Positions 18,834 to 61,895 of a stretch of DNA of 64,000 nucleotides are shown here, one piece after another (position 1 is the stretch's first letter; the number at the start of each line of letters is the position of its first letter). Both the position numbers and the translations under genes were made by a program. Under the pieces are notes generated by a model. That model was not told the DNA's origin. It saw only the letters and a program-made list of their open reading frames with translations, and made no database searches. The stretch is from an uncultured Bacteroidia bacterium (GTDB taxonomy: Bacteria; Bacteroidota; Bacteroidia; Bacteroidales; CAJPTX01): positions 413 to 64,412 of the forward strand of contig CALHSW010000076.1 in assembly GCA_938038735.1 (NCBI GenBank), given 5' to 3'.

Positions 18834-20639
18834 CTATTTGGATGCAGCAGAGGCGAAAAGATCCTTCACCCCATCCTCGTTGAGCAGTATATACGTTGGG
18901 GAGCCGAGAGGGTCAATGGCGGGCGCATGGCAGGCGAAGAGGTCGTGGAGCAGCGTCTGTAGCTGTTGCTCCGCGAGGGACTGCGCCCTACCAATGGCGG
19001 CGGCAAAGGCCAAGTGCTTCAGGTAGTCATCATGCGCCTCGGCGTGTGCCGATTCGTTGGTGGAGTGGTCTGTATCTAACATTTCTACTACAAGGTCGGC
19101 ACACTTATCGGGTGATAGCCAGTGGGGTATTGCGAGCAGGGATAGGGTGGAGGTGGCATCCTGCTGCTGAACGGCGAAGCCCAACTTTTGCGCCTCTGGA
19201 ATGAAGTCTTGCAGCACGGCGCGTTGGGTAGCGTTAAGGGGAATGGTAATCGGCATGGCAAGGCGCTGCGAAACGCCATGCTGAGGCGCTGCCGCGCAGA
19301 GCTGCTCGTAGAGAATACGGGCGTGCGCCCTATGCTGATCCACGATGGCAACAAGCCCCTCGCCCATTGGGGTCACGATGTAGTGGTCTGCAAGCTGGAA
19401 AGCTTTGCTTAGGGCGGCTTGCGACGTGAGCGAGGGCGGCTGCGAAAGGCTGTTCATCTGCGAAGGAATGGCCCTGCGCATACTTCCGTCCCCGGTTGGT
19501 TTTGCCGTATTGGGCATTCGCCAAGGAGCATCGGCCAGCGCGCTCGCCGACTCCGTGCGCTCCTGCTCCGAGATAGAGAAAAAGGAGGAGGGCGGGAAGA
19601 AACTGCTAGAGGTGAGCGGCGGTGTGCTGAAATCTATCTGCGGCATGCCGCTATGCTTCCCGAGCACCTCCCGCACGGCGGAGTGCAGCAGCTGCCATAT
19701 CACTTGGTCGTTTTCAAATTTAATCTCCGTTTTCTGCGGGTGGATATTCACGTCGATGGTAGCGGGGTCAACTGTGAAGAAAACGAAGAAGATAGGCATC
19801 ATGTCGGTGGCTATCAGCTTCTCGAATGCGGCGTAGATGGCCCTATTGAGGGCGGGGTTACGCATGAAGCGTGCGTTGACGAAGAGGAACTGCTCCCCGG
19901 CTCTCCGCTTTGCCGCTTTGGGCGTTCCGATAAACCCCTCAATGTCCACAAGGTCAGTGTGAACGGTTATGGGGAGGAGGTTCTTTTCGAGCTTCTGCCC
20001 GAAGAGGGCGAGAATGCGCTCCTTGCGATTGGATACGTGTAGGTCGTATAGCACCGCGCTATCGTGCGATAGGCGCATAGCCACCTGCGGGTTGGCTAGC
20101 GCAACACGTTGAAACTCGCTGACAATATGCTTTAGCTCCACGGAAGTACTCTTCAGGAAGCGCCGCCTCGCCGGTACATTGAAGAAGAGGTTCCGTACAA
20201 AAAAGTTTGTGCCAACAGGCGCAGCCACGGGGGTGTGGTCAAGCACCTTAGACGCCGCAAGCGTTACCTGCGTACCCATCTCATCCTCAGCGCGCCGCGT
20301 TATGAGCGTTACCTCAGCCACGGCGGCAATTGAGGCGAGAGCCTCTCCGCGGAAGCCCATAGTGGCAATGGCACTAAGGTCGTGCGCCTCATGAATTTTT
20401 GACGTAGCGTGGCGTTCAAAGCATAGCCGCGCGTCGGTGTGCGACATACCCTGCCCGTTGTCCACCACCTGAATTCCCGCCTTCCCCGCGTCGAACGCAT
20501 TGAGCTGTATTGCCGATGCACCCGCATCGATGCTATTCTCCAGCAGCTCCTTCACCACGGAGGCGGGGCGCTGCACCACCTCCCCCGCGGCGATTTGGTT
20601 CGCTACGCTGTCCGGCAAAAGGTTGATGATATCCGACAT
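18834..20639 (-). CDS. mutL: DNA mismatch repair endonuclease MutL
   Basis: N-terminal GHKL ATPase signature IINLLPDSVANQIAAGEVVQRPASVVKELLENSIDAG. 601 aa. Confidence 0.93.
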   Translation of the reverse strand: MSDIINLLPDSVANQIAAGEVVQRPASVVKELLENSIDAGASAIQLNAFDAGKAGIQVVDNGQGMSHTDARLCFERHATSKIHEAHDLSAIATMGFRGEALASIAAVAEVTLITRRAEDEMGTQVTLAASKVLDHTPVAAPVGTNFFVRNLFFNVPARRRFLKSTSVELKHIVSEFQRVALANPQVAMRLSHDSAVLYDLHVSNRKERILALFGQKLEKNLLPITVHTDLVDIEGFIGTPKAAKRRAGEQFLFVNARFMRNPALNRAIYAAFEKLIATDMMPIFFVFFTVDPATIDVNIHPQKTEIKFENDQVIWQLLHSAVREVLGKHSGMPQIDFSTPPLTSSSFFPPSSFFSISEQERTESASALADAPWRMPNTAKPTGDGSMRRAIPSQMNSLSQPPSLTSQAALSKAFQLADHYIVTPMGEGLVAIVDQHRAHARILYEQLCAAAPQHGVSQRLAMPITIPLNATQRAVLQDFIPEAQKLGFAVQQQDATSTLSLLAIPHWLSPDKCADLVVEMLDTDHSTNESAHAEAHDDYLKHLAFAAAIGRAQSLAEQQLQTLLHDLFACHAPAIDPLGSPTYILLNEDGVKDLFASAASK

Positions 20640-20647
20640 CTTCCTTT

Positions 20648-20935
20648 CTAGAGTCTCAAGTAAACGTAGAACACTAGCACCAGCACGCCAAAAATGATTA
20701 GCGTACGCACCCCCTGCGCCCGTCGCGGGGAGTGTGAACGCTGGGCCCGCGCGGAGTCAAAGGCCATGCGCATGCGCACCTGCGCCAGCCCGCTTGTAGC
20801 GTCCGTTTGCTCGCCACGCTCTAGACGTGCAGCCTCTTCGAGAGCCCTGATACGCTCCTTGCGCGGATCGTAGTAGCGCGCCTTGAAGTCAAACTGCCTC
20901 GGTTTTCGGGTTGCAAAAGGACTATAAATTCCCAT
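20648..20935 (-). CDS. Small hypothetical protein with a C-terminal TM helix (first gene of the mutL operon)
   Basis: Start moved to the ATG at 20935 (MGIYSPF...), which lies 22 nt downstream of a -7 box. The track ORF start (21004) would lie upstream of the promoter. Confidence 0.55.
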   Translation of the reverse strand: MGIYSPFATRKPRQFDFKARYYDPRKERIRALEEAARLERGEQTDATSGLAQVRMRMAFDSARAQRSHSPRRAQGVRTLIIFGVLVLVFYVYLRL

Positions 20936-20957
20936 CTCTATTCCATTGAATCGTTTG

Positions 20958-20965
20958 CAAAGGTA
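20958..20965 (-). promoter_or_regulatory. -7 box TACCTTTG for the small-ORF/mutL/rhomboid/EEP/apbE operon
   Basis: Plus-strand CAAAGGTA equals minus-strand TACCTTTG, an exact TAnnTTTG match. Confidence 0.5.
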
Positions 20966-21073
20966 GTGAATTTTCGTCTTCTCCCCCATGGGGCTTTTCC
21001 CCATTGGCGATACGAAGCGTTACGCCTACTTGCGCTGCTAGTGCTGTACAGCTCTTCTTACGCCGCACCAATG

Positions 21074-23449
21074 CTAGTACAGCGTTCCTCGGTCTGTATC
21101 CTCATTCTCCAAGCTGCGTCGGGGTCGGTAATCATTCCCCGCCGAGAAGTAGTAGCTAACGGTAAGGCTCGCCTTCCAATGCTCATCCTGCTCCGTTGTC
21201 CTCTGCCACTGATACAAGTCAAAAACATCGTGGCTTACCGTTTCGTAGCTGACGGCCCTAAACATGTACTCCAATGCCAGGTAGATGCTCCACGAATCGT
21301 TACCCCAAAACCCCATTAATGAGGTTGATTCGTGATTCTTAGTGTACGAGCCCTGCGAGAGCGCGCTGTACGGGATAGAAACATCTCCCTGCGCGCCCCA
21401 TCCCTGGTATTGAAACGAAATGCTCGCCCCCGCAGGGAAGGAGAAACCGGATGCCGCCTTCTCCTTAGTAAACTGGAATAGCGAGTAGCACGCCTTTGCG
21501 TATGGGCTAAGGGTAAGCCTATCATCTCCGAGGGGCTTAATGGATAGGCTGAGGCTCAGCTCGGCAAGCTGGGAGAATTGGCCGTTGTTTGCTTGCGTGA
21601 CCATAGCCTTCCTCCCGCCAATGTCAGCCAGCCCATAGCCTACGTACCAAAATCTATGCGTGTACCCATACCTCGCGGCACTTCGGATGGCGATGTAAGC
21701 ATTACGCCACATGTAGGAGAGCTGCGCCATGGCATCGTAGCTATTCTTCAGCATGGGATTGTTACGCCGGTATAAATCCTCCCGGATTTGAATTGTGGCT
21801 TCCGTGGTCTCCCCGAACTCCGGGATGTTGTTCTGCGTCCCTAGGTCAAGCCGTAGGCGGCTGTTATGCGGCAGGTACCATCCGAACGACACGCTAGGGT
21901 TGAAGGTCCAGTGCACCTGCGATTGGTCAAGCCCCCGGTGGCTGGATACGTAATGTACATTCACCGCGGGCACCGCCCGAAAGAAAAAATTGTTGCGCGA
22001 TATGCTCCACGCTGCGTAAGCGCGGTCACGCAGCTGGTGCTGTTGATCAATTGCGTTAAGCGCATCCGATTGATTGATAGAAATTTTAGCATGCGAGAAC
22101 ATCAACGTTGTTCCGGCGTTGAATGCCATCTTCCCAATCGGCAATTCGTAGTCAAGCTGGGCAATGATGGAGTTCTTATCAGTTTTGGCATTCAAATCGT
22201 TGGCCATCACGCCCTCTTCCTTCGCAGCGATTAGGTACTCGTGTGCCGCATATTTGGTGTAGCTGTTTGCATTCGTATACACCACGTTAGCCGTAAGTTT
22301 ATCGTTCCGCTTCGCAAAGTAGTGGTCGTAGTACAAATCCACCACATGCACAAGCGAACCGTTGTTCGATAGCTGGGTCCCGCGGCGTTGCTGCCTATTA
22401 TTGCCGAGTAGCACGAGTCCCTCGTACGTGTTGGGATTGCTAAACTGATCCCACCTGCCTGAATAAAAAACCTCGAGAAACTGTTTTTTAGGCTCGTTGT
22501 AGGAGTAGCTTAACTTGAGAAAGGCATTGCTAGAAGTGAATTTACTTAGCCCTTCCACCTCGTACCTGTTTTGGCGCCATGTTGTGTAGTCCGTGATTTC
22601 CTCTCCAATCCTGCCCTTTCTTAGTTTTCTAAAAAAGCCTTTACTGAAAAGTTTGAATTGGTGCCCACCAGAGTTGTAGTTGTAGTAAATCCGTCCCGAA
22701 ACGTCCGACATCAGCGGGGCTGTGTAGACCTCGAACCCGGCGTGGTGGCCATCGTCAAGCGGTTTGGTAATCACATCGATTACAGGCTTGGTGGTGTTGT
22801 ATCGCTCTGGAGCCACGTCGAAGTAGTCAATGTGAACAATCTTCGATGCGGAAATTGACCGTAGCTCCTGCATGGTTCCATGGTGTCCATTGATGAGGAT
22901 AAGGGGCGGCTCTCCGCCTATTGCTGAGGCAATCTCCCCATTGCCAGCCAGTTTGAGCTCGGGGAGTAGCAATGCAAGGTTAAAGCTAGTTTTTGCCTCG
23001 CGCATCTGCGCTGAGCTAAAGGAATAGCTTTGGCGATTGATTCCAACTTTCCGCAGGGCTGACACCCTCACTGCGTCCATCTCTACCGTTTTTGACTCTT
23101 TGGCCAAATTGAAATCACGCCGTGAAATACCAGCGATGCTATCGGTAGGAATTGTTTTGACGACCGCCTCAAACCCCACGTAGCACACCTCTACGAGGTA
23201 TTGCTTAGCGTAGGGCGGTTCTATATTGAGTACGTAGAACCCGCTCTTGTCCGTATAGGTAAAGCGTACCGGATTCGCCGTCACCGAATCGGCATGTAGG
23301 GCAACGAGGGCCATCTCGGCCGGTGTCCCTTCCTCCAAAATGACATACCCATTTACCGCTTTCTTTTCTTTTGGCTCTTGCGCCAACGCCCCGCTACCCA
23401 CAATGCTACATAGGGATAACACTAGTAGAAGTACTACAAATTTGCTCAT
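21074..23449 (-). CDS. TonB-dependent-receptor-like outer-membrane beta-barrel protein (CarboxypepD_reg-like + plug-like + barrel), third gene of the RiPP operon
   Basis: Signal peptide MSKFVVLLLVLSLCSIVGSGALAQ. N-terminal Ig-like segment NGYVILEEGTPAEMALVAL...GFYVLNI. Plug-like NLALLLPELKL...GEPPLILINGH...IVHIDYFDVAPERYN. Alternating beta-strand pattern with a C-terminal aromatic residue. Starts 9 nt after the rSAM stop. Confidence 0.82.
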   Translation of the reverse strand: MSKFVVLLLVLSLCSIVGSGALAQEPKEKKAVNGYVILEEGTPAEMALVALHADSVTANPVRFTYTDKSGFYVLNIEPPYAKQYLVEVCYVGFEAVVKTIPTDSIAGISRRDFNLAKESKTVEMDAVRVSALRKVGINRQSYSFSSAQMREAKTSFNLALLLPELKLAGNGEIASAIGGEPPLILINGHHGTMQELRSISASKIVHIDYFDVAPERYNTTKPVIDVITKPLDDGHHAGFEVYTAPLMSDVSGRIYYNYNSGGHQFKLFSKGFFRKLRKGRIGEEITDYTTWRQNRYEVEGLSKFTSSNAFLKLSYSYNEPKKQFLEVFYSGRWDQFSNPNTYEGLVLLGNNRQQRRGTQLSNNGSLVHVVDLYYDHYFAKRNDKLTANVVYTNANSYTKYAAHEYLIAAKEEGVMANDLNAKTDKNSIIAQLDYELPIGKMAFNAGTTLMFSHAKISINQSDALNAIDQQHQLRDRAYAAWSISRNNFFFRAVPAVNVHYVSSHRGLDQSQVHWTFNPSVSFGWYLPHNSRLRLDLGTQNNIPEFGETTEATIQIREDLYRRNNPMLKNSYDAMAQLSYMWRNAYIAIRSAARYGYTHRFWYVGYGLADIGGRKAMVTQANNGQFSQLAELSLSLSIKPLGDDRLTLSPYAKACYSLFQFTKEKAASGFSFPAGASISFQYQGWGAQGDVSIPYSALSQGSYTKNHESTSLMGFWGNDSWSIYLALEYMFRAVSYETVSHDVFDLYQWQRTTEQDEHWKASLTVSYYFSAGNDYRPRRSLENEDTDRGTLY

Positions 23450-23458
23450 GTAAGCTTG

Positions 23459-24961
23459 TCAGTTTATGTGCCAGTATGTATTAATCGGTTTTGGAGCCTT
23501 CGGGCATAGTGGATCAGGAAAAAAGCAATTATCCTCCCCATACGCCATGAGGACCGTCTTCCAGCACACCCCTCTCTCCCGCCGACACGCATCAAAATCG
23601 TTGCATGTTCTACATGGACTATCGGATGGAATATTGCCCCTCTTCAAATAGAACAAGTCAAGCGCCTTTTGAGAATTCCACACCTCTAGGAGGCTTTTCT
23701 CTTTGAGGTCGCCTATAATGAATGTGGGATTATCGTAAAGCTCCTCGCAAATCGTCACCCTTCCATCTGGTAAAACTACCGCGCTCCTTGTGTTTGCTGT
23801 GCAAAACGCACGACTAGCAAAACGGCGGCTGGAGCTACGGTTCTCGAGAGAGTGTTCACCTTCAGAAAAGGTGAACCGTATCTGCGGATACCTGCTTTTC
23901 ACCTCTCCGTTAAGATGCACTGAGAGCGTATCTATTGCGCTTCGTGCAGCAGCATAGGCGGAGAAAGACTTCCTGTAGAGAGAATATCCAGCGGGTGAAA
24001 ACGATATTTGTTTTACGCATGTATGCTCAGATAAAAATTCAACGAGAGCATCCATGCTCTGAATTGACGAGTTCTTATTGGTAATCAACGAGTTGATCTG
24101 TACATGAACCCCCGCATTACTCAGCATGCCTAAAGCGTTTGACATGTCTCTGATGTATCGATTCCCTTGAACGCGAAGCAAAGCCGAACTCGCTTCATAG
24201 TCCACAGTGTCCATTGAAATCTGAAATCGCGGTATGCCTAAGTCAATAATTTTCTCCGCAACATCTTCCTTAATTGGGATTTTCGTTGATATGAGGGGAG
24301 AATATCCATGCGCAACGAGCGCTTTAACCACATCAAACCACTGTGGGTAAAGTAACACCTCTCCTCCATTGATGTCCACTTTAGCCACTCCTTTTTCTGC
24401 TGCCTGTTCAATCAAATCCAAGACAGCCTCATATCCAAATGCGGGGTGGTTGGGTATGGGACGCCTTGCGTAGCAATATACGCAATCGGTTAAGCATTTA
24501 GTTGTCAAGACCACATTCAAATTCACAGGAACGCCCAACCTCTCTGGTGGAGTAAAGTCGTACGCTTCTGACGTAAATACATCTGGGTCGTACGACCTGA
24601 AAGTAAGACCGTCCCTTACTGGAACCAGCATGTACTGTGGCACGGTTTGCGTTGCGCTACCGATTCGATTGGATACAACTTCACTGTTATTAATGTACAG
24701 ACTTGCACAATCAACGCAGGCATCGAAGGGCACACCCAGCCTTTCCGATGCCTGTTGTGCTGCCTCTCGTAGCGTCCGCCTCCCATCGAAGCAAGCAAAT
24801 AGAATAGCGGTTAGCAAATGGATATGTGTAAGAAAACCCTCCCTATGCGGTATCTCTTCGAATACCCTGCCGCCTTCGCAAAGCGTACCCACTCCGCCAT
24901 CGCGCCGCATACAGTAGTTAGGGTTGATACCAACAATCACATTTGAATCGATCCTTTCCAT
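23459..24961 (-). CDS. Radical SAM/SPASM-domain peptide maturase with an N-terminal RRE(PqqD)-like region (CXXX-repeat-target type suspected)
   Basis: CX3CX2C at TKCLTDCVYCYARR. C-terminal auxiliary-cluster pattern FCTANTRSAVVLPDGRVTIC (CX12GX4C), then CRTCNDFDACRRERGVC and CFFPDPLC. N-terminal LLTAILFACFDGRRTLREAAQQASERLGV resembles a PqqD-like RiPP recognition element. Confidence 0.85.
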   Translation of the reverse strand: MERIDSNVIVGINPNYCMRRDGGVGTLCEGGRVFEEIPHREGFLTHIHLLTAILFACFDGRRTLREAAQQASERLGVPFDACVDCASLYINNSEVVSNRIGSATQTVPQYMLVPVRDGLTFRSYDPDVFTSEAYDFTPPERLGVPVNLNVVLTTKCLTDCVYCYARRPIPNHPAFGYEAVLDLIEQAAEKGVAKVDINGGEVLLYPQWFDVVKALVAHGYSPLISTKIPIKEDVAEKIIDLGIPRFQISMDTVDYEASSALLRVQGNRYIRDMSNALGMLSNAGVHVQINSLITNKNSSIQSMDALVEFLSEHTCVKQISFSPAGYSLYRKSFSAYAAARSAIDTLSVHLNGEVKSRYPQIRFTFSEGEHSLENRSSSRRFASRAFCTANTRSAVVLPDGRVTICEELYDNPTFIIGDLKEKSLLEVWNSQKALDLFYLKRGNIPSDSPCRTCNDFDACRRERGVCWKTVLMAYGEDNCFFPDPLCPKAPKPINTYWHIN

Positions 24962-24996
24962 ATCCGAGCTAGGAGATGGCTACTTCGCTTACACCC

Positions 24997-25039
24997 AAAA
25001 GAAGCACGGCGAGACTCCGCGCTAACGTTCGCCGCTTCT
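24997..25039 (-). terminator. Candidate partial terminator/attenuator hairpin between the precursor and maturase genes
   Basis: Minus strand: AGAAGC-GGCGA / TCGCC-(GT bulge)-GCTTCT, 16-nt loop, then TTTGGG. It lies in the 113-nt spacer. Confidence 0.35.
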
Positions 25040-25074
25040 CCCAAATTCTATTGAATACTAACTCAATGAATAGC

Positions 25075-25269
25075 CTATTTGTGACCTATTTGCCCTGCAT
25101 TTCCACCCGTCTTACTGCTCTCCTTGCATCCGTCCTTACAGCTTTCCCTACAACTCTCTTTGCAGCTGTCAAACCAGCAGTTAAACCATCCAGAATCAGC
25201 CGACGTGCCGCCCGTTCCGCCAAGGATGTCAAGCTTCTCTTCCTGGGTAAACTCATCGATACTCTTCAT
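25075..25269 (-). CDS. RiPP precursor peptide: double-glycine leader + C-x3 cysteine-repeat core (64 aa)
   Basis: MKSIDEFTQEEKLDILGG | TGGTSADSGWFNCWFDSCKESCRESCKDGCKESSKTGGNAGQIGHK. ATG at 25269 lies 46 nt downstream of a -7 box. Four 12-nt TG(C/T)-AxG-GAx-xxx units are visible in the DNA. Confidence 0.8.
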   Translation of the reverse strand: MKSIDEFTQEEKLDILGGTGGTSADSGWFNCWFDSCKESCRESCKDGCKESSKTGGNAGQIGHK

Positions 25270-25314
25270 AATTACGCCCCTTTCTCGTTTTATGTCTGTA
25301 ACAATCAAACAGCA

Positions 25315-25322
25315 CAAAGTTA
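25315..25322 (-). promoter_or_regulatory. -7 box TAACTTTG driving the precursor/rSAM/barrel operon
   Basis: Plus-strand CAAAGTTA equals minus-strand TAACTTTG. No canonical -33 TTTG at 19-21 nt spacing. Confidence 0.5.
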
Positions 25323-25753
25323 AAACTTTTTTTTTAACAGAAGAGCTATTCAAAGCATCTTTTCAACTGAGACATGTAAGGTGCTTGTATTCAATGGCTT
25401 GTTAGTAAAAAAAACTACGCATCAAAAAAGCTTAACCCCAAAAACGGCAGTCTGCGGCAATGTGCAGCCCCCCTTCCGCAGCGTAGAAAGGATAGTGACG
25501 AGCTTTGCAAATACTATACTCATGCATCTAAAGCGAAGCTAGGGGCCTTTGCTGCGCGGCGAACCGCAGTTCGGCTATTACCAAGGGCGCACGCGTCTCC
25601 TCCTTGGTACGTTCTATACCTCCGCCCGCACCATGTCCTGTGTGCCGCCCATCCTCCAAGCGTGTATCGTAGCAAACAGAGGGGGCTTACCGTGGGCGTA
25701 CTATTCATGGCTCCCAATCGTTCTGCGCAACCCCGCACCGAAGCCGCACCAAA

Positions 25754-25805
25754 TTCGCATCAAATTCGGATTTCTCCGGAGAAATCCGAATTTGATGCGA
25801 AGGGG
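25754..25805. repeat. Palindromic intergenic repeat, copy 1 (52 bp identical to 61632-61683; perfect 48-bp palindrome at 25754-25801)
   Basis: TTCGCATCAAATTCGGATTTCTCC|GGAGAAATCCGAATTTGATGCGAA is self-complementary around a central CCGG. The same 52-mer recurs at 61.63 kb. Confidence 0.9.
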
Positions 25806-25968
25806 ATCCGAATTTAGGGCATGTTTTTCCCAGTTTTAATGCGCCATTGGGCAACGTAACCGGGGAGGAAGCGAAGGGGTAGGCGATACGTTTCAAAGTT
25901 TTGATTAACTTCGCGAAGGTGATGTGGTTGCTAGAGAATGGATTGACGTATAACGAAACAAGGGTAAA

Positions 25969-26301
25969 ATGGGCTTGGAACTAGATCCGAATCGATTATT
26001 TTACGGCATTGGGGAGGTGGCGAAAATACTTGATGTGCCGCAAAGTACGCTGCGCTACTGGGAGCAAAACTTTCCGCAGCTCTCCCCCAAGAAGGGGGCC
26101 AATGGCCGTCGGCAGTATACGTCCTCCGACGTGCGTATGCTGAAGGAGATACGGCATTTGCTGAAGGTGGAGGGGGTGTCAATAGAGCAGGCGCGCCATA
26201 GGCTGGGGCAGGCCGATCGGCGGGAGCAGAATCGGATGTCGGCGGTAAGCAAATTGATGGAGCTCAAGCGGAAGCTGCAGGAGTTGCAAAACAAAATTTA
26301 A
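25969..26301 (+). CDS. MerR-family helix-turn-helix transcriptional regulator
   Basis: YGIGEVAKILDVPQSTLRYWEQNFPQL...GRRQYTSSDVRMLKEIRHLL is a typical MerR N-terminal HTH plus wing. Coiled-coil C-terminus. Confidence 0.85.
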   Translation: MGLELDPNRLFYGIGEVAKILDVPQSTLRYWEQNFPQLSPKKGANGRRQYTSSDVRMLKEIRHLLKVEGVSIEQARHRLGQADRREQNRMSAVSKLMELKRKLQELQNKI

Positions 26302-26302
26302 G

Positions 26303-27088
26303 ATGCGGGTAACAGTGGGCGATGTGGCCGCGGCGATTGAAGAGTTTGCGCCGCTGTCGCTACAGGAGGAGTACGATAATAGCGGGCTGCAGGTAGGGCG
26401 CATTGATAGCGAAGTGCGCGGGGTGCTTGTCTGCTTTGACGTGAACGAGGCAGTACTCGACGAGGCTGAGGCGCAGGGGTGCGACATGGTGGTGTCGCAC
26501 CACCCGGTGCTATTTCGGGGTATAAAATATTTTACAGGGGCTATACGTGAGGGAAATCTCGTGGAGCGCGCCATAAAAAATGGGGTCACGCTATACGCTG
26601 CGCATACGAACCTGGATTTTGCCCGTGGTGGGGTGAGCTACGTGATGGGGAGTCGGCTGGGGCTGGAGGGGATGATGGCATTGCGTACCGATGCCGCGGG
26701 GCGAGAGATGGGGGTAGTCGGCTCGCTAGCGCATGCAGTGCCGCCCGCGGCGTTCCTAGCACTGCTCAAGGAACGTCTCAAATGCTCCACTATTCGCTAC
26801 AACGCAGAGAGCTCGGTGGGCGAGGTGCGGCGGGTGGCGCTATGCGGCGGGAGCGGAATGGACCTCTACAATGAGGCATTGCAGAAAAAGGCTGATGCAT
26901 TTGTCACGGGAGATGCAAAATACCATGATTTTCAGCGTGGCATAGGGCAGATGTTGCTAGTGGATGTGGGGCATCGGGAGAGCGAGTGGGGGGCAGTCCG
27001 TTTGCTAGCGGATATAATTCGTGAGAAAATACCTAACTTCGCGGTTCACGAGAGTGTTCGTGATGGGAGTCCGGTGCGGTACTACTAA
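26303..27088 (+). CDS. Nif3-family dinuclear metal centre protein (YbgI/GTP cyclohydrolase 1 type 2 homologue)
   Basis: MVVSHHPVLFRGIK, LYAAHTNLDFA and C-terminal GHRESE metal-ligand contexts. Confidence 0.88.
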   Translation: MRVTVGDVAAAIEEFAPLSLQEEYDNSGLQVGRIDSEVRGVLVCFDVNEAVLDEAEAQGCDMVVSHHPVLFRGIKYFTGAIREGNLVERAIKNGVTLYAAHTNLDFARGGVSYVMGSRLGLEGMMALRTDAAGREMGVVGSLAHAVPPAAFLALLKERLKCSTIRYNAESSVGEVRRVALCGGSGMDLYNEALQKKADAFVTGDAKYHDFQRGIGQMLLVDVGHRESEWGAVRLLADIIREKIPNFAVHESVRDGSPVRYY

Positions 27089-27107
27089 TTTATACAAGAG
27101 CAGAACA

Positions 27108-27935
27108 ATGGCAGGGGAAAACAGGGTCGTTCAGTCAGAGGAGTTAACGCTTGAAAACAGCTTGAAGGTTCTATTCGAATTGCAGCGGGTGGATGCGCGC
27201 ATAGCGCATATTCGGATGCTGCGTGGAGAGTTACCCATGGCCGTGGAGGATTTGGAGGATGAAATTGCGGGGCTACAAACGCGCATAGGGAACTTACAGG
27301 ATGCGCAGAAAGCGGCATCCAGCGATATAAACACGAAGCGTCATGAGATAAAGAGCGCCGAGGTACTCATTAAGAAGTATGAGAAGCAGCTTGAAAATGT
27401 GCGTAACAATCGGGAGTACGACAATCTGACGAAGGAGGTAGAGTACCAACAGCTTGAGGTGGAGCTTCGCAACAAGCAGATAAAGGAACTGAAGATTAAG
27501 AACGATGAGACCGGTGCTTCCATTGAGAGTACGAAGCAAGTGATAGCGGAGCGGGAGCAAGATTTGCAGGCTAAGCGGGCAGAACTAGAATCGGTCATCG
27601 CGGAGACAGCTAAGGAGGAGGCGGAGCTTACGCAGGAGTCTGAAAGGCTACAGGCGCAGCTGCCGGAGCGGCTGTTGAAGGCGTACATACGCATATGCGG
27701 CAGCGTGCGGAATGGGTTGGGGGTGGTTACCGTGGTGCGCGGTGCGTGCGGCGGCTGCTTCCGCCGTATACCGCCGCAGCGGCAGCTGGACATTCGCTCC
27801 CATAAACGGGTGGTGGTGTGCGAGAATTGCGGACGGATTATCGTGGATGACCCCACGCAGGCGCCCGAGGAGGCAGAAGAGGCCCCCGAGGAGGTGAAGC
27901 CCATGGCAAAACGCCGCAGAAGGGCGGAGAAGTAG
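27108..27935 (+). CDS. Coiled-coil zinc-ribbon protein (COG1579-type, usual Nif3 neighbour)
   Basis: Start set to the ATG at 27108 (MAGENRVV). Long heptad-rich region, then CGGCFRRIPPQ...CENCGRI zinc ribbon. Confidence 0.82.
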   Translation: MAGENRVVQSEELTLENSLKVLFELQRVDARIAHIRMLRGELPMAVEDLEDEIAGLQTRIGNLQDAQKAASSDINTKRHEIKSAEVLIKKYEKQLENVRNNREYDNLTKEVEYQQLEVELRNKQIKELKIKNDETGASIESTKQVIAEREQDLQAKRAELESVIAETAKEEAELTQESERLQAQLPERLLKAYIRICGSVRNGLGVVTVVRGACGGCFRRIPPQRQLDIRSHKRVVVCENCGRIIVDDPTQAPEEAEEAPEEVKPMAKRRRRAEK

Positions 27936-61480: not shown

Positions 61481-61631
61481 GCGTAATTATTTCTAAATCC
61501 ATCTCGCCATACGCTCCCTCTGCACTCCTCCCCCTTTCTCTGCCTTAACCTTCGCAGCAAAAAAATGTATCCAAGGCACTGACAAAAGATGGGGTATAAG
61601 GGAGCATATATCGTACTGAAGAGGTACCCTC

Positions 61632-61683
61632 TTCGCATCAAATTCGGATTTCTCCGGAGAAATCCGAATTTGATGCGAAGGGG
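61632..61683. repeat. Palindromic intergenic repeat, copy 2 (52 bp identical to 25754-25805; perfect 50-bp palindrome at 61631-61680)
   Basis: Same 52-mer as copy 1. Here complementarity extends imperfectly to about 61624-61687. Confidence 0.9.
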
Positions 61684-61895
61684 GTGCGAGTTTGATGGCT
61701 CTTGGAAACGCCCCCACGGGAACCACTTGCCTTTTTTCCTCAATAGGATAAGCCGCTGAGAAACGTAGGTTCCCCATTTTGTCCTCAAAACAATCACACT
61801 TAGCATGACCGTTTACAATCCGATATCGCACAACGAGTTAAATTGCAATTACGACGACCGGACTTCCTAAAAAATGGCCTCGTTGCCGGTACGGA

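Follow-up and report, generated by a model that had tools for sequence, protein, structure and literature searches.

The stretch of DNA considered here (the window) comprises 64,000 nucleotides of contig CALHSW010000076.1, assigned to an uncultured Bacteroidia bacterium (GenBank assembly GCA_938038735.1). On its reverse strand, positions 21024-25441 hold an optional cassette of ~4.4 kb encoding a Cys-repeat peptide, a radical S-adenosylmethionine enzyme with a SPASM domain (rSAM/SPASM) and a TonB-dependent-type outer-membrane barrel. An earlier note, made from the sequence alone, had described the three genes as an operon for a ribosomally synthesised and post-translationally modified peptide (RiPP), and the map of open reading frames (ORFs) reproduced its coordinates, protein lengths and intergenic distances. 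In the direction of transcription the cassette is laid out as follows:

21024..25441, reverse strand: whole accessory cassette including its own promoter region, present or absent between strains
25315..25322, reverse strand: TAACTTTG, candidate Bacteroidota-type -7 promoter box (sequence and pattern scan)
25269-25075, reverse strand: ORF of the 64-aa precursor (ORF map)
24962..25074, reverse strand: precursor-maturase spacer of 113 nt (ORF map)
23459..24961, reverse strand: rSAM/SPASM peptide maturase, 500 aa (Pfam domains, structure model, fold matches)
23450-23458, reverse strand: maturase-barrel gap of 9 nt (ORF map)
21074..23449, reverse strand: TonB-dependent-transporter-like outer-membrane protein, 791 aa (structure model, Foldseek, Pfam domains of its family)

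A cassette present or absent between strains

Two contigs (L084 and L087; loci and contigs are cited here by such L numbers) encode an identical MerR protein and lack the cassette. They align at 97% to window positions 19561-21023 and 25442-27468, and because only ~9 nt lie between these two alignments the cassette could be delimited to 21024-25441 (4418 nt). Its bounds include the TAACTTTG box and leave mutL, merR and a 118-aa ORF outside; the 118-aa ORF and MerR were considered as cassette genes and rejected, both being present in the empty-site contigs. At the junctions, neither direct or inverted repeats nor an integrase or recombinase were found.

The earlier note had suspected an accessory cassette from its richness in AT. 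The proposal was right and its ground was not: accessory status is shown by the empty-site contigs. The operon does have a lower GC content (0.44-0.49) than its immediate flanks (0.55-0.59), but the cassette as a whole (0.492) lies ~1 sd under the window mean (0.524 +/- 0.031), and composition was rejected as a sign of foreign origin in favour of the empty-site evidence.

The TAACTTTG box stands where it had been reported, inside the cassette and 46 nt 5' of the precursor ATG. Matches to TANNTTTG exceed expectation in the window (44 vs 30.9 +/- 5.8), but this single instance is weak evidence of a promoter. Scans for sigma-70 sites and terminators gave numbers not above those of shuffled sequences, and Rfam returned no RNA family in or near the cassette. 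One terminator-like hairpin (25023-25003) falls within the 113-nt spacer, where an attenuator was considered and rejected, the folding being no better than that of shuffles (z = -0.5). Between the cassette and merR, at window 25745-25805, lies a palindromic element of ~60-80 nt (…CATCAAATTCGGATTTCTCCGGAGAAATCCGAATTTGATG…) with a second copy at 61612-61693; it looks like a REP-type repeat, and its presence in the empty-site contigs places it outside the cassette.

The Cys-repeat peptide and its maturase

The first two genes resolve into the following parts:

25216..25269, reverse strand: double-glycine leader (residues 1-18, MKSIDEFTQEEKLDILGG), kept in the closest relatives
25075..25215, reverse strand: core peptide, residues 19-64, and stop codon; five Cys, with C-(K/R)-(E/D)-(S/G) repeats over four Cys-Cys spacings
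24617..24961, reverse strand: RRE-like N-terminal domain of the maturase, ~residues 1-115 (structure model)
24473..24496, reverse strand: CX3CX2C radical-SAM cluster motif (C156, C160, C163), invariant in 112 sequences
23492..23812, reverse strand: SPASM domain, residues 384-490, seven Cys (CX12GX4C ... CX2CX5CX6C ... C)

The 64-aa precursor consists of the leader MKSIDEFTQEEKLDILGG, which ends in ...EEKLDILGG, followed by the core TGGTSADSGWFNCWFDSCKESCRESCKDGCKESSKTGGNAGQIGHK, whose Cys spacings are 5, 4, 4 and 4. The ATG at 25269, and not the TTG upstream of it, is the real start, as the first residues of orthologous peptides, MKRIEEFTQEEK and MTKRIDEFTQDEK, show. The closest relatives (L096, L094, L001) keep both the leader IDEFTQ(E/D)EKLxILGG and the core motif CKxxCKxxC...CKESSK. 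In a strain variant of the window peptide (P0132) the leader and all Cys are unchanged, and changes within the units are confined to E->D and S->G at +2 and +3, besides others in the tail.

For a broader view of the precursors, small ORFs were listed 5' of the maturase homologue in 79 fetched loci. A Cys-rich peptide with an acidic leader lies within 500 nt of the maturase in at least 44 of them and farther 5' in seven more, so that the conservation of the small ORF beside orthologous maturases, on which the earlier note had staked its reading, holds in at least 51 loci. Most of 45 precursors carry a GG or GA leader motif, and a Cys-Cys spacing of 4, that is CxxxC, dominates (127 of ~205 spacings). 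The logo of 134 CxxxC units, taken from 45 distinct peptides, shows K (30%) or S (15%) at +1, a variable +2 and G (50%) or S (27%) at +3, giving the consensus unit C-[K/S]-x-[G/S]; four residues past the last Cys, Ser or Asn is usual. The core is hydrophilic and Cys-rich, unlike membrane-active bacteriocins, and the double-glycine leader implies a C39-peptidase ABC exporter (PCAT). Five loci (L016, L022, L043, L051, L062) have a DUF6934 protein of ~150 aa between the precursor gene or genes and the maturase, some with two tandem precursors.

The cluster motif and the SPASM pattern read from the maturase sequence by the earlier note were borne out. Both are invariant in an alignment of 112 homologues, including the SPASM residues C387, C405, C450, C453, C459, C466 and C486, and the domain models pass their thresholds: Radical_SAM (PF04055) scores 52.3 bits against a gathering score of 29.5, SPASM (PF13186) 46.0 against 21.5 and TIGR04085 32.9 against 27. 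Homologues were found at 32-58% identity. The AlphaFold (AF2) model built on the 112-sequence alignment has a pLDDT of 95.3; its best structural matches in the PDB are SuiB (E 8e-18, full length), SkfB, PqqE and CteB, and a profile search of PDB sequences likewise places SuiB first, at 55 bits.

The N-terminal segment had been described as PqqD/RRE-like. In the model it forms strands at residues 16-21, 24-29 and 44-48 and helices at 49-56, 64-75 and 79-87, an order which, like the alignment with SuiB, points to the arrangement of a RiPP recognition element (RRE). At the sequence level the description found no support, the PqqD Pfam model giving no match to the N-terminus even at E = 10, and the RRE-like assignment is thus a structural one.

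A conserved Cys-repeat precursor beside an RRE-like rSAM/SPASM maturase supports the earlier note's reading of a RiPP operon, and the rSAM enzyme almost certainly modifies the peptide. It is hardly credible that the small ORF is spurious and that the enzyme matures a protein or a cofactor, as anSME or MoaA do. MoaA and other non-peptide rSAM models do score near PqqE (57 vs 63 bits), but the leader/core organisation conserved in so many loci already contradicts this explanation, the RRE-like domain argues against it, and the structural ranking favours peptide maturases, with anSME 18th or lower. The refuting outcome named in the earlier note, a non-peptide rSAM model as best HMM hit, did not occur.

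The same note had regarded the maturase as a member or relative of the curated family named for CXXX-repeat targets. Membership did not survive the NCBIfam scan, in which neither the window maturase nor any of its relatives (25/25) reached an equivalog, the best score being that of PqqE (63 bits, cutoff 381); TIGR04115 (CXXX-repeat) and TIGR04148 were rejected on this ground. That the enzyme belongs to TIGR04115 after all would fit a substrate with Cys at every fourth residue in CxxxC repeats, as well as the weak, sub-threshold matches of relatives' precursors to the Cxxx-target models TIGR04114, TIGR04117 and TIGR04118. We nevertheless regard it as very improbable, since TIGR04115 is not among the 25 best NCBIfam families for the maturase and so scores below 28 bits, and the window peptide matches no NCBIfam precursor model, TIGR04149 (cutoff 25 bits) included. 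Among relatives, sub-threshold matches extend to SCIFF (18 bits) and to TIGR04149, the L012 precursor coming closest at 24.0 bits.

Judged by sequence, the maturase family is separate from every curated model and is itself uncurated. It has relatives in 294 species-level genomes and, among 1.84 billion library representatives clustered at 50% identity, counts 746 members at E <= 1e-30, with labelled sources that are nearly all Bacteroidota; a literature search found no paper characterising it. Loci from metagenome-assembled genomes (MAGs) labelled Lachnospiraceae, Clostridia, Bacilli or Saccharibacteria (L027, L031, L052, L063, L064, L067, L069) are probably mis-binned contigs rather than evidence of true hosts, and MAGs of Aminicenantes and Omnitrophota (L010, L021, L060) carry versions without a barrel. 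A subgroup from rumen Bacteroidales (L019, L025, L032, L035, L049, L078) shows no detectable Cys-rich precursor and is flanked by nif3/PNPase on one side and a DsrC-like gene on the other. The window cassette, too, stands beside nif3, a position that may be a recurrent insertion site; alternatively, the subgroup may be an orphan enzyme with another substrate.

The outer-membrane barrel and its association with the maturase

The third gene encodes a protein with these parts:

23381..23449, reverse strand: signal peptide, ~residues 1-23 (…GALA|QE), with a model helix at residues 2-19 and a putative cleavage site
23096..23362, reverse strand: CarboxypepD_reg-like N-terminal extension, residues 30-118 (sub-threshold Pfam; strands within residues 30-110)
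23057..23080, reverse strand: TonB-box-like motif, residues 124-131 (MDAVRVSA), aligned to the family motif L-x-E-V-x-V just before the plug
22760..23044, reverse strand: plug domain, ~residues 136-230 (mixed helix/strand in the model; Plug Pfam in 12/29 relatives)
21137..22750, reverse strand: transmembrane beta-barrel, ~residues 234-771 (long antiparallel strands, pLDDT 85-94; matches to TonB-dependent transporters)

The earlier note had read CarboxypepD_reg-like, plug-like and barrel parts in this protein. Scanned directly with Pfam and NCBIfam, neither it nor the window peptide nor the 118-aa ORF gave a match above threshold. Its own matches are limited to sub-threshold CarboxypepD_reg ones (25.4 bits under a gathering score of 32.3), with none to Plug, TonB_dep_Rec or OMP_b-brl_3, and its identity was therefore taken from family members and from structure. 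Barrel homologues downstream of related maturases were collected by an iterative hidden Markov model search and aligned. Among 29 of these relatives, Pfam recognises OMP_b-brl_3 (PF14905) in 21 (best 3e-94) and CarbopepD_reg_2 in 22 (E <= 0.01), next to the Plug cases listed above and TonB_dep_Rec in 7. Hydrophobic N-termini are found across the whole family, and L-x-E-V-x-V precedes the plug throughout it; MDAVRVSA, the candidate TonB box of the window protein, is predicted to be extended and of low pLDDT, as a TonB box would be.

The AF2 model of the barrel (pLDDT 82) begins with a signal helix and continues through a beta-sandwich extension and a plug region into a long barrel; its top 50 Foldseek matches in the PDB are all TonB-dependent transporters (TBDTs; E ~1e-17, probability 1.0), among them PhuR, FepA, Cir, PfeA, ZnuD and OprC. 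As modelled, with the strand number not counted exactly, it fits the plug-in-22-strand-barrel architecture of TBDTs. The barrel profile also brings up proteins whose sources call them 'outer membrane beta-barrel family protein' or 'ferric enterobactin receptor'. The barrel family taken whole is not specific to RiPPs, since generic PF14905 relatives occur outside such clusters; one of them, in Myroides guanonis (L099, 4785-9457), directly follows a His_kinase/LytTR two-component pair, an arrangement which hints that some barrels of the family are linked to peptide sensing.

To describe the neighbourhood of the maturase, all ORFs of the 79 loci and of the window were clustered, and counts were taken from the 66 loci that extend 2.5 kb or more beyond the 3' end of the maturase gene. 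A barrel homologue is present in 48 of these and directly follows the maturase gene on its strand in 27, mostly at a distance of -14 to +40 nt; the close spacing that the earlier note had asked about recurs, 17 gaps being of 20 nt or less. Its supposition of an obligatory coupling was too strong: the association is frequent and tight, not obligatory. A PCAT, whose identity in related loci was confirmed by Pfam, is found in 37 of the 66 loci. Both genes are present in 32, a barrel without a PCAT within ~6 kb in 16, and a PCAT without a barrel in 5. The common order is rSAM-barrel-PCAT-(MFP), MFP denoting a membrane fusion protein, and other recurrent partners are HlyD-like, GNAT, RDD, LanC-like, DsrC-like and DUF6934 proteins. 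A tblastn search of the 64-kb window for homologues of PCAT, HlyD-like, LanC-like, GNAT, RDD, DsrC and DUF6934 proteins gave no matches.

L094/L001 and the Prevotella/Segatella clade also have the three genes with no PCAT. In the Prevotella/Segatella/Muribaculum clade (L002-L006, L008, L050), the PCAT is replaced after the barrel by a LanC-like protein and a protein of ~270-460 aa without Pfam domains, and the precursors have two blocks of CxxxC repeats.

The cassette could also be a decaying or incomplete remnant of a fuller mobile cluster (precursor-rSAM-barrel-PCAT), from which the strain would no longer make a mature secreted product. The closest relative (58% identity) has the order precursor-rSAM-barrel-PCAT-168 aa next to a TraG-type coupling protein of type IV secretion systems (L096-L098, 8420-10423), and the next closest (51%) has precursor-rSAM-barrel next to an IS30-like transposase fragment (L094, 12193-12768), an indication of spread via conjugative or mobile elements. 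A PCAT is missing from the window, and the cassette from some strains. Furthermore, in a second assembly of the same species, GCA_003555645.1 (L080, QWCB01000004.1), a 2-bp (TA) deletion at window 24800-24801 splits the maturase into ORFs of 82 and 424 aa, which could be a real pseudogenisation or an assembly error, and truncated maturase and barrel variants are present among the 90% clusters. Set against this, the three ORFs are unbroken both in the window and in several independent contigs (98-99.5% nucleotide identity), the changes in the precursor variant are conservative and preserve the pattern, the form without a PCAT recurs as described above, and a PCAT could sit beyond the 64 kb. A remnant seems unlikely.

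Elsewhere in the neighbourhood, a SusC-like TonB-dependent receptor 3' of a 7TMR-HD gene (L090, L091, L093; ~ window 30.4-33.7 kb) is broken into 2-4 ORFs in several strain contigs and intact in others, making it another strain-variable or error-prone gene.

Proposed function in the light of known systems

The reading we favour, and hold to be fairly probable, is that positions 21024-25441 make up a strain-variable cassette with its own promoter, which encodes a ribosomal peptide natural product and a barrel dedicated to transport of the peptide. The precursor has a leader of the double-glycine type, followed by a core built of C-(K/R)-x-(G/S) repeats; the leader would be bound by the RRE-like domain of the 500-aa maturase, which, with one SAM cluster and two auxiliary clusters, would place several intramolecular cross-links at the repeated Cys. 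Judging from SCIFF/ranthipeptide, freyrasin and sactipeptide maturases as analogues, the links would be thioethers. The 791-aa barrel, probably of Oar/PF14905 type, would then carry the peptide through the outer membrane. Relatives encode an ABC exporter in the cluster and the window cassette does not, so that removal of the leader and passage through the inner membrane would have to be supplied in trans. The data themselves establish which genes are present, their folds, the conserved linkage of precursor, maturase and barrel and the accessory nature of the cassette; chemistry, direction of transport and biological role are deduced.

Among the closest known systems are the SCIFF/ranthipeptide and freyrasin ones (maturases CteB, Tte1186, PapB), which have a short precursor with Cys at every fourth residue and a maturase of RRE, rSAM and SPASM domains with seven SPASM Cys. 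Besides, CteB is among the structural matches and the SCIFF model among those weakly matched by a relative's precursor. There are also differences. CteB is ~15% identical to the window maturase, which reaches no equivalog; the known systems belong to Firmicutes, whereas the window system belongs to Bacteroidota and has a double-glycine leader; and its repeat, C-[K/S]-x-[G/S], lacks a conserved Thr/Asp acceptor, while its operon includes a TBDT-like barrel. Architecture and the fold matches to CteB, SkfB and SuiB speak for a maturase of ranthipeptide or sactipeptide type; the RRE of the window enzyme is seen only in the structure and no equivalog is reached, and the assignment is a tentative one. 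The streptide maturase SuiB, best match in both structure and PDB sequence, shares RRE, rSAM and SPASM over the full length; it differs in its identity of 15-17%, in making a Lys-Trp bond on a peptide that is not Cys-rich and in its Gram-positive origin without a barrel. The NCBIfam 'CXXX-repeat' (TIGR04114/04115/04117/04118) and 'GG-Bacteroidales' (TIGR04149) models embody the same concept, a Cys-Xaa3 or GG-leader peptide with an rSAM/SPASM enzyme, but are reached by neither the maturase nor the peptide of the window. The system would work like a RiPP of ranthipeptide or sactipeptide type with a double-glycine leader. To our knowledge, every characterised SPASM maturase acting on Cys-rich peptides makes thioethers (SCIFF/CteB, PapB, QhpD, sactisynthases), and on this analogy we infer that the repeated Cys are cross-linked by the window enzyme, with thioethers as the most likely bonds, a judgement in which confidence and doubt are about equal.

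With regard to the barrel, the earlier note knew of no such coupling among described RiPP classes, but it has already been reported (PMC9389541, PMC11002830, PMC8939145, PMC10352776). The itf cluster of B. thetaiotaomicron encodes the rSAM enzyme ItfD, the YcaO protein ItfB, the PCAT ItfE and the TonB-dependent transporter ItfF (PMC11002830), and an uncharacterised Parabacteroides cluster combines a precursor, an rSAM enzyme, a TonB-dependent receptor and a PCAT (PMC9389541). These clusters and others (PMC10352776) resemble the window system and its relatives as Bacteroidales systems in which a SPASM rSAM enzyme and a precursor of GG type occur together with a PCAT and a TonB-dependent protein of the outer membrane. 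The Itf precursor, by contrast, has no Cys repeats, and ItfD together with a YcaO partner forms a Trp-Ile C-C link; neither YcaO nor PCAT is encoded in the window cassette. PF14905 or TonB-dependent receptor genes also accompany graspetide loci of Bacteroidetes, with a predicted role in export (PMC8939145), and TonB-dependent/PF14905 barrels occur in Bacteroidales biosynthetic gene clusters (PMC10352776). In Myxococcus xanthus, the TonB-dependent transporter Oar is needed for secretion of PopC (PMC6434023). Oar is similar by domain layout, with a CarboxypepD_reg extension, a plug with TonB box and a 22-strand barrel, and sets a precedent for a TBDT in secretion (PMC6434023); its substrate, on the other hand, is a 50-kDa protease and no RiPP, and oar is not adjacent to the substrate gene. 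The rSAM RiPP concept and the association with barrels in Bacteroidota RiPP clusters have been noted before; the maturase family is a distinct one without a characterised member.

Because of the common order rSAM-barrel-PCAT-(MFP), the presence of barrels at chemically unrelated Bacteroidota RiPP loci and the Oar precedent, we lean towards export over import, without firm conviction, as the step completing the route begun by the PCAT. Import was considered because the solved homologues of the barrel are all importers and because the barrel persists where no PCAT is nearby; re-import of the peptide is a tentative second choice.

Several points weigh against the reading as a whole. The thioether chemistry rests on analogy, and SuiB, the nearest solved structure, makes a Lys-Trp C-C bond instead. 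At +2 the repeat shows no conserved Asp/Glu, in contrast to the CX3D motif of freyrasin, and the unit logo suggests no obvious cross-link acceptor. The structurally characterised matches of the barrel are all importers, and the window protein itself is under the Pfam thresholds for Plug (PF07715), TonB_dep_Rec (PF00593) and OMP_b-brl_3 (PF14905). No PCAT, MFP or ABC homologue occurs anywhere in the 64-kb window, and the barrel is not strictly tied to an export module because 16 barrel loci, that of the window included, show no PCAT within ~6 kb. Lastly, with the maturase frameshifted in one assembly and strains free of the cassette, the cassette may be decaying.

Some of these points would fit a peptide that is secreted by a transporter encoded elsewhere and recaptured by the barrel as its cognate importer, serving metal acquisition or sensed as a pheromone. 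MbnT, the TonB-dependent importer of methanobactin, is the model for such a route. The importers heading the structural matches include the metal transporters ZnuD and OprC, the TonB-box-like motif is conserved in the family, the barrel is kept with peptide and maturase in the loci without a PCAT and in the window, and the hydrophilic, Cys-rich core does not resemble a membrane-active bacteriocin. A link to sensing would agree with the generic PF14905 relative beside the His_kinase/LytTR pair and with the two-component system upstream of the Parabacteroides cluster (PMC9389541). We consider recapture rather doubtful all the same, since the cassette has no periplasmic binding protein, inner-membrane importer or metal regulator, and the neighbouring MerR, found in the empty-site contigs, is not part of it. 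Moreover, conversion of thiols to thioethers, if made by the rSAM enzyme, would abolish metal binding, and since like barrels accompany chemically unrelated RiPPs, generic transport fits better than a specific chelate receptor. Bolder still, and unlikely in our estimation, is that peptides with C-[K/S]-x-[G/S] repeats constitute a RiPP class of their own, with an undescribed cross-link chemistry, and are re-imported by the barrel, so as to serve gut and oral Bacteroidota as a metallophore or self-sensed signal and not as bacteriocins.

Bacteroidota dominate gut and oral microbiomes, and almost none of their modified peptides have been characterised. The maturase family described here is widespread (~294 species-level genomes, ~746 clusters), has no curated model and acts, as predicted, on substrates sharing a simple, predictable repeat. 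The window holds a minimal three-gene version of the system, for which natural strains with the cassette, without it and with a frameshift provide a ready comparison of product and role. It is also a compact test of the direction in which the barrels beside many unrelated Bacteroidota RiPP clusters carry peptides: outwards, as with Oar and its substrate, or inwards.

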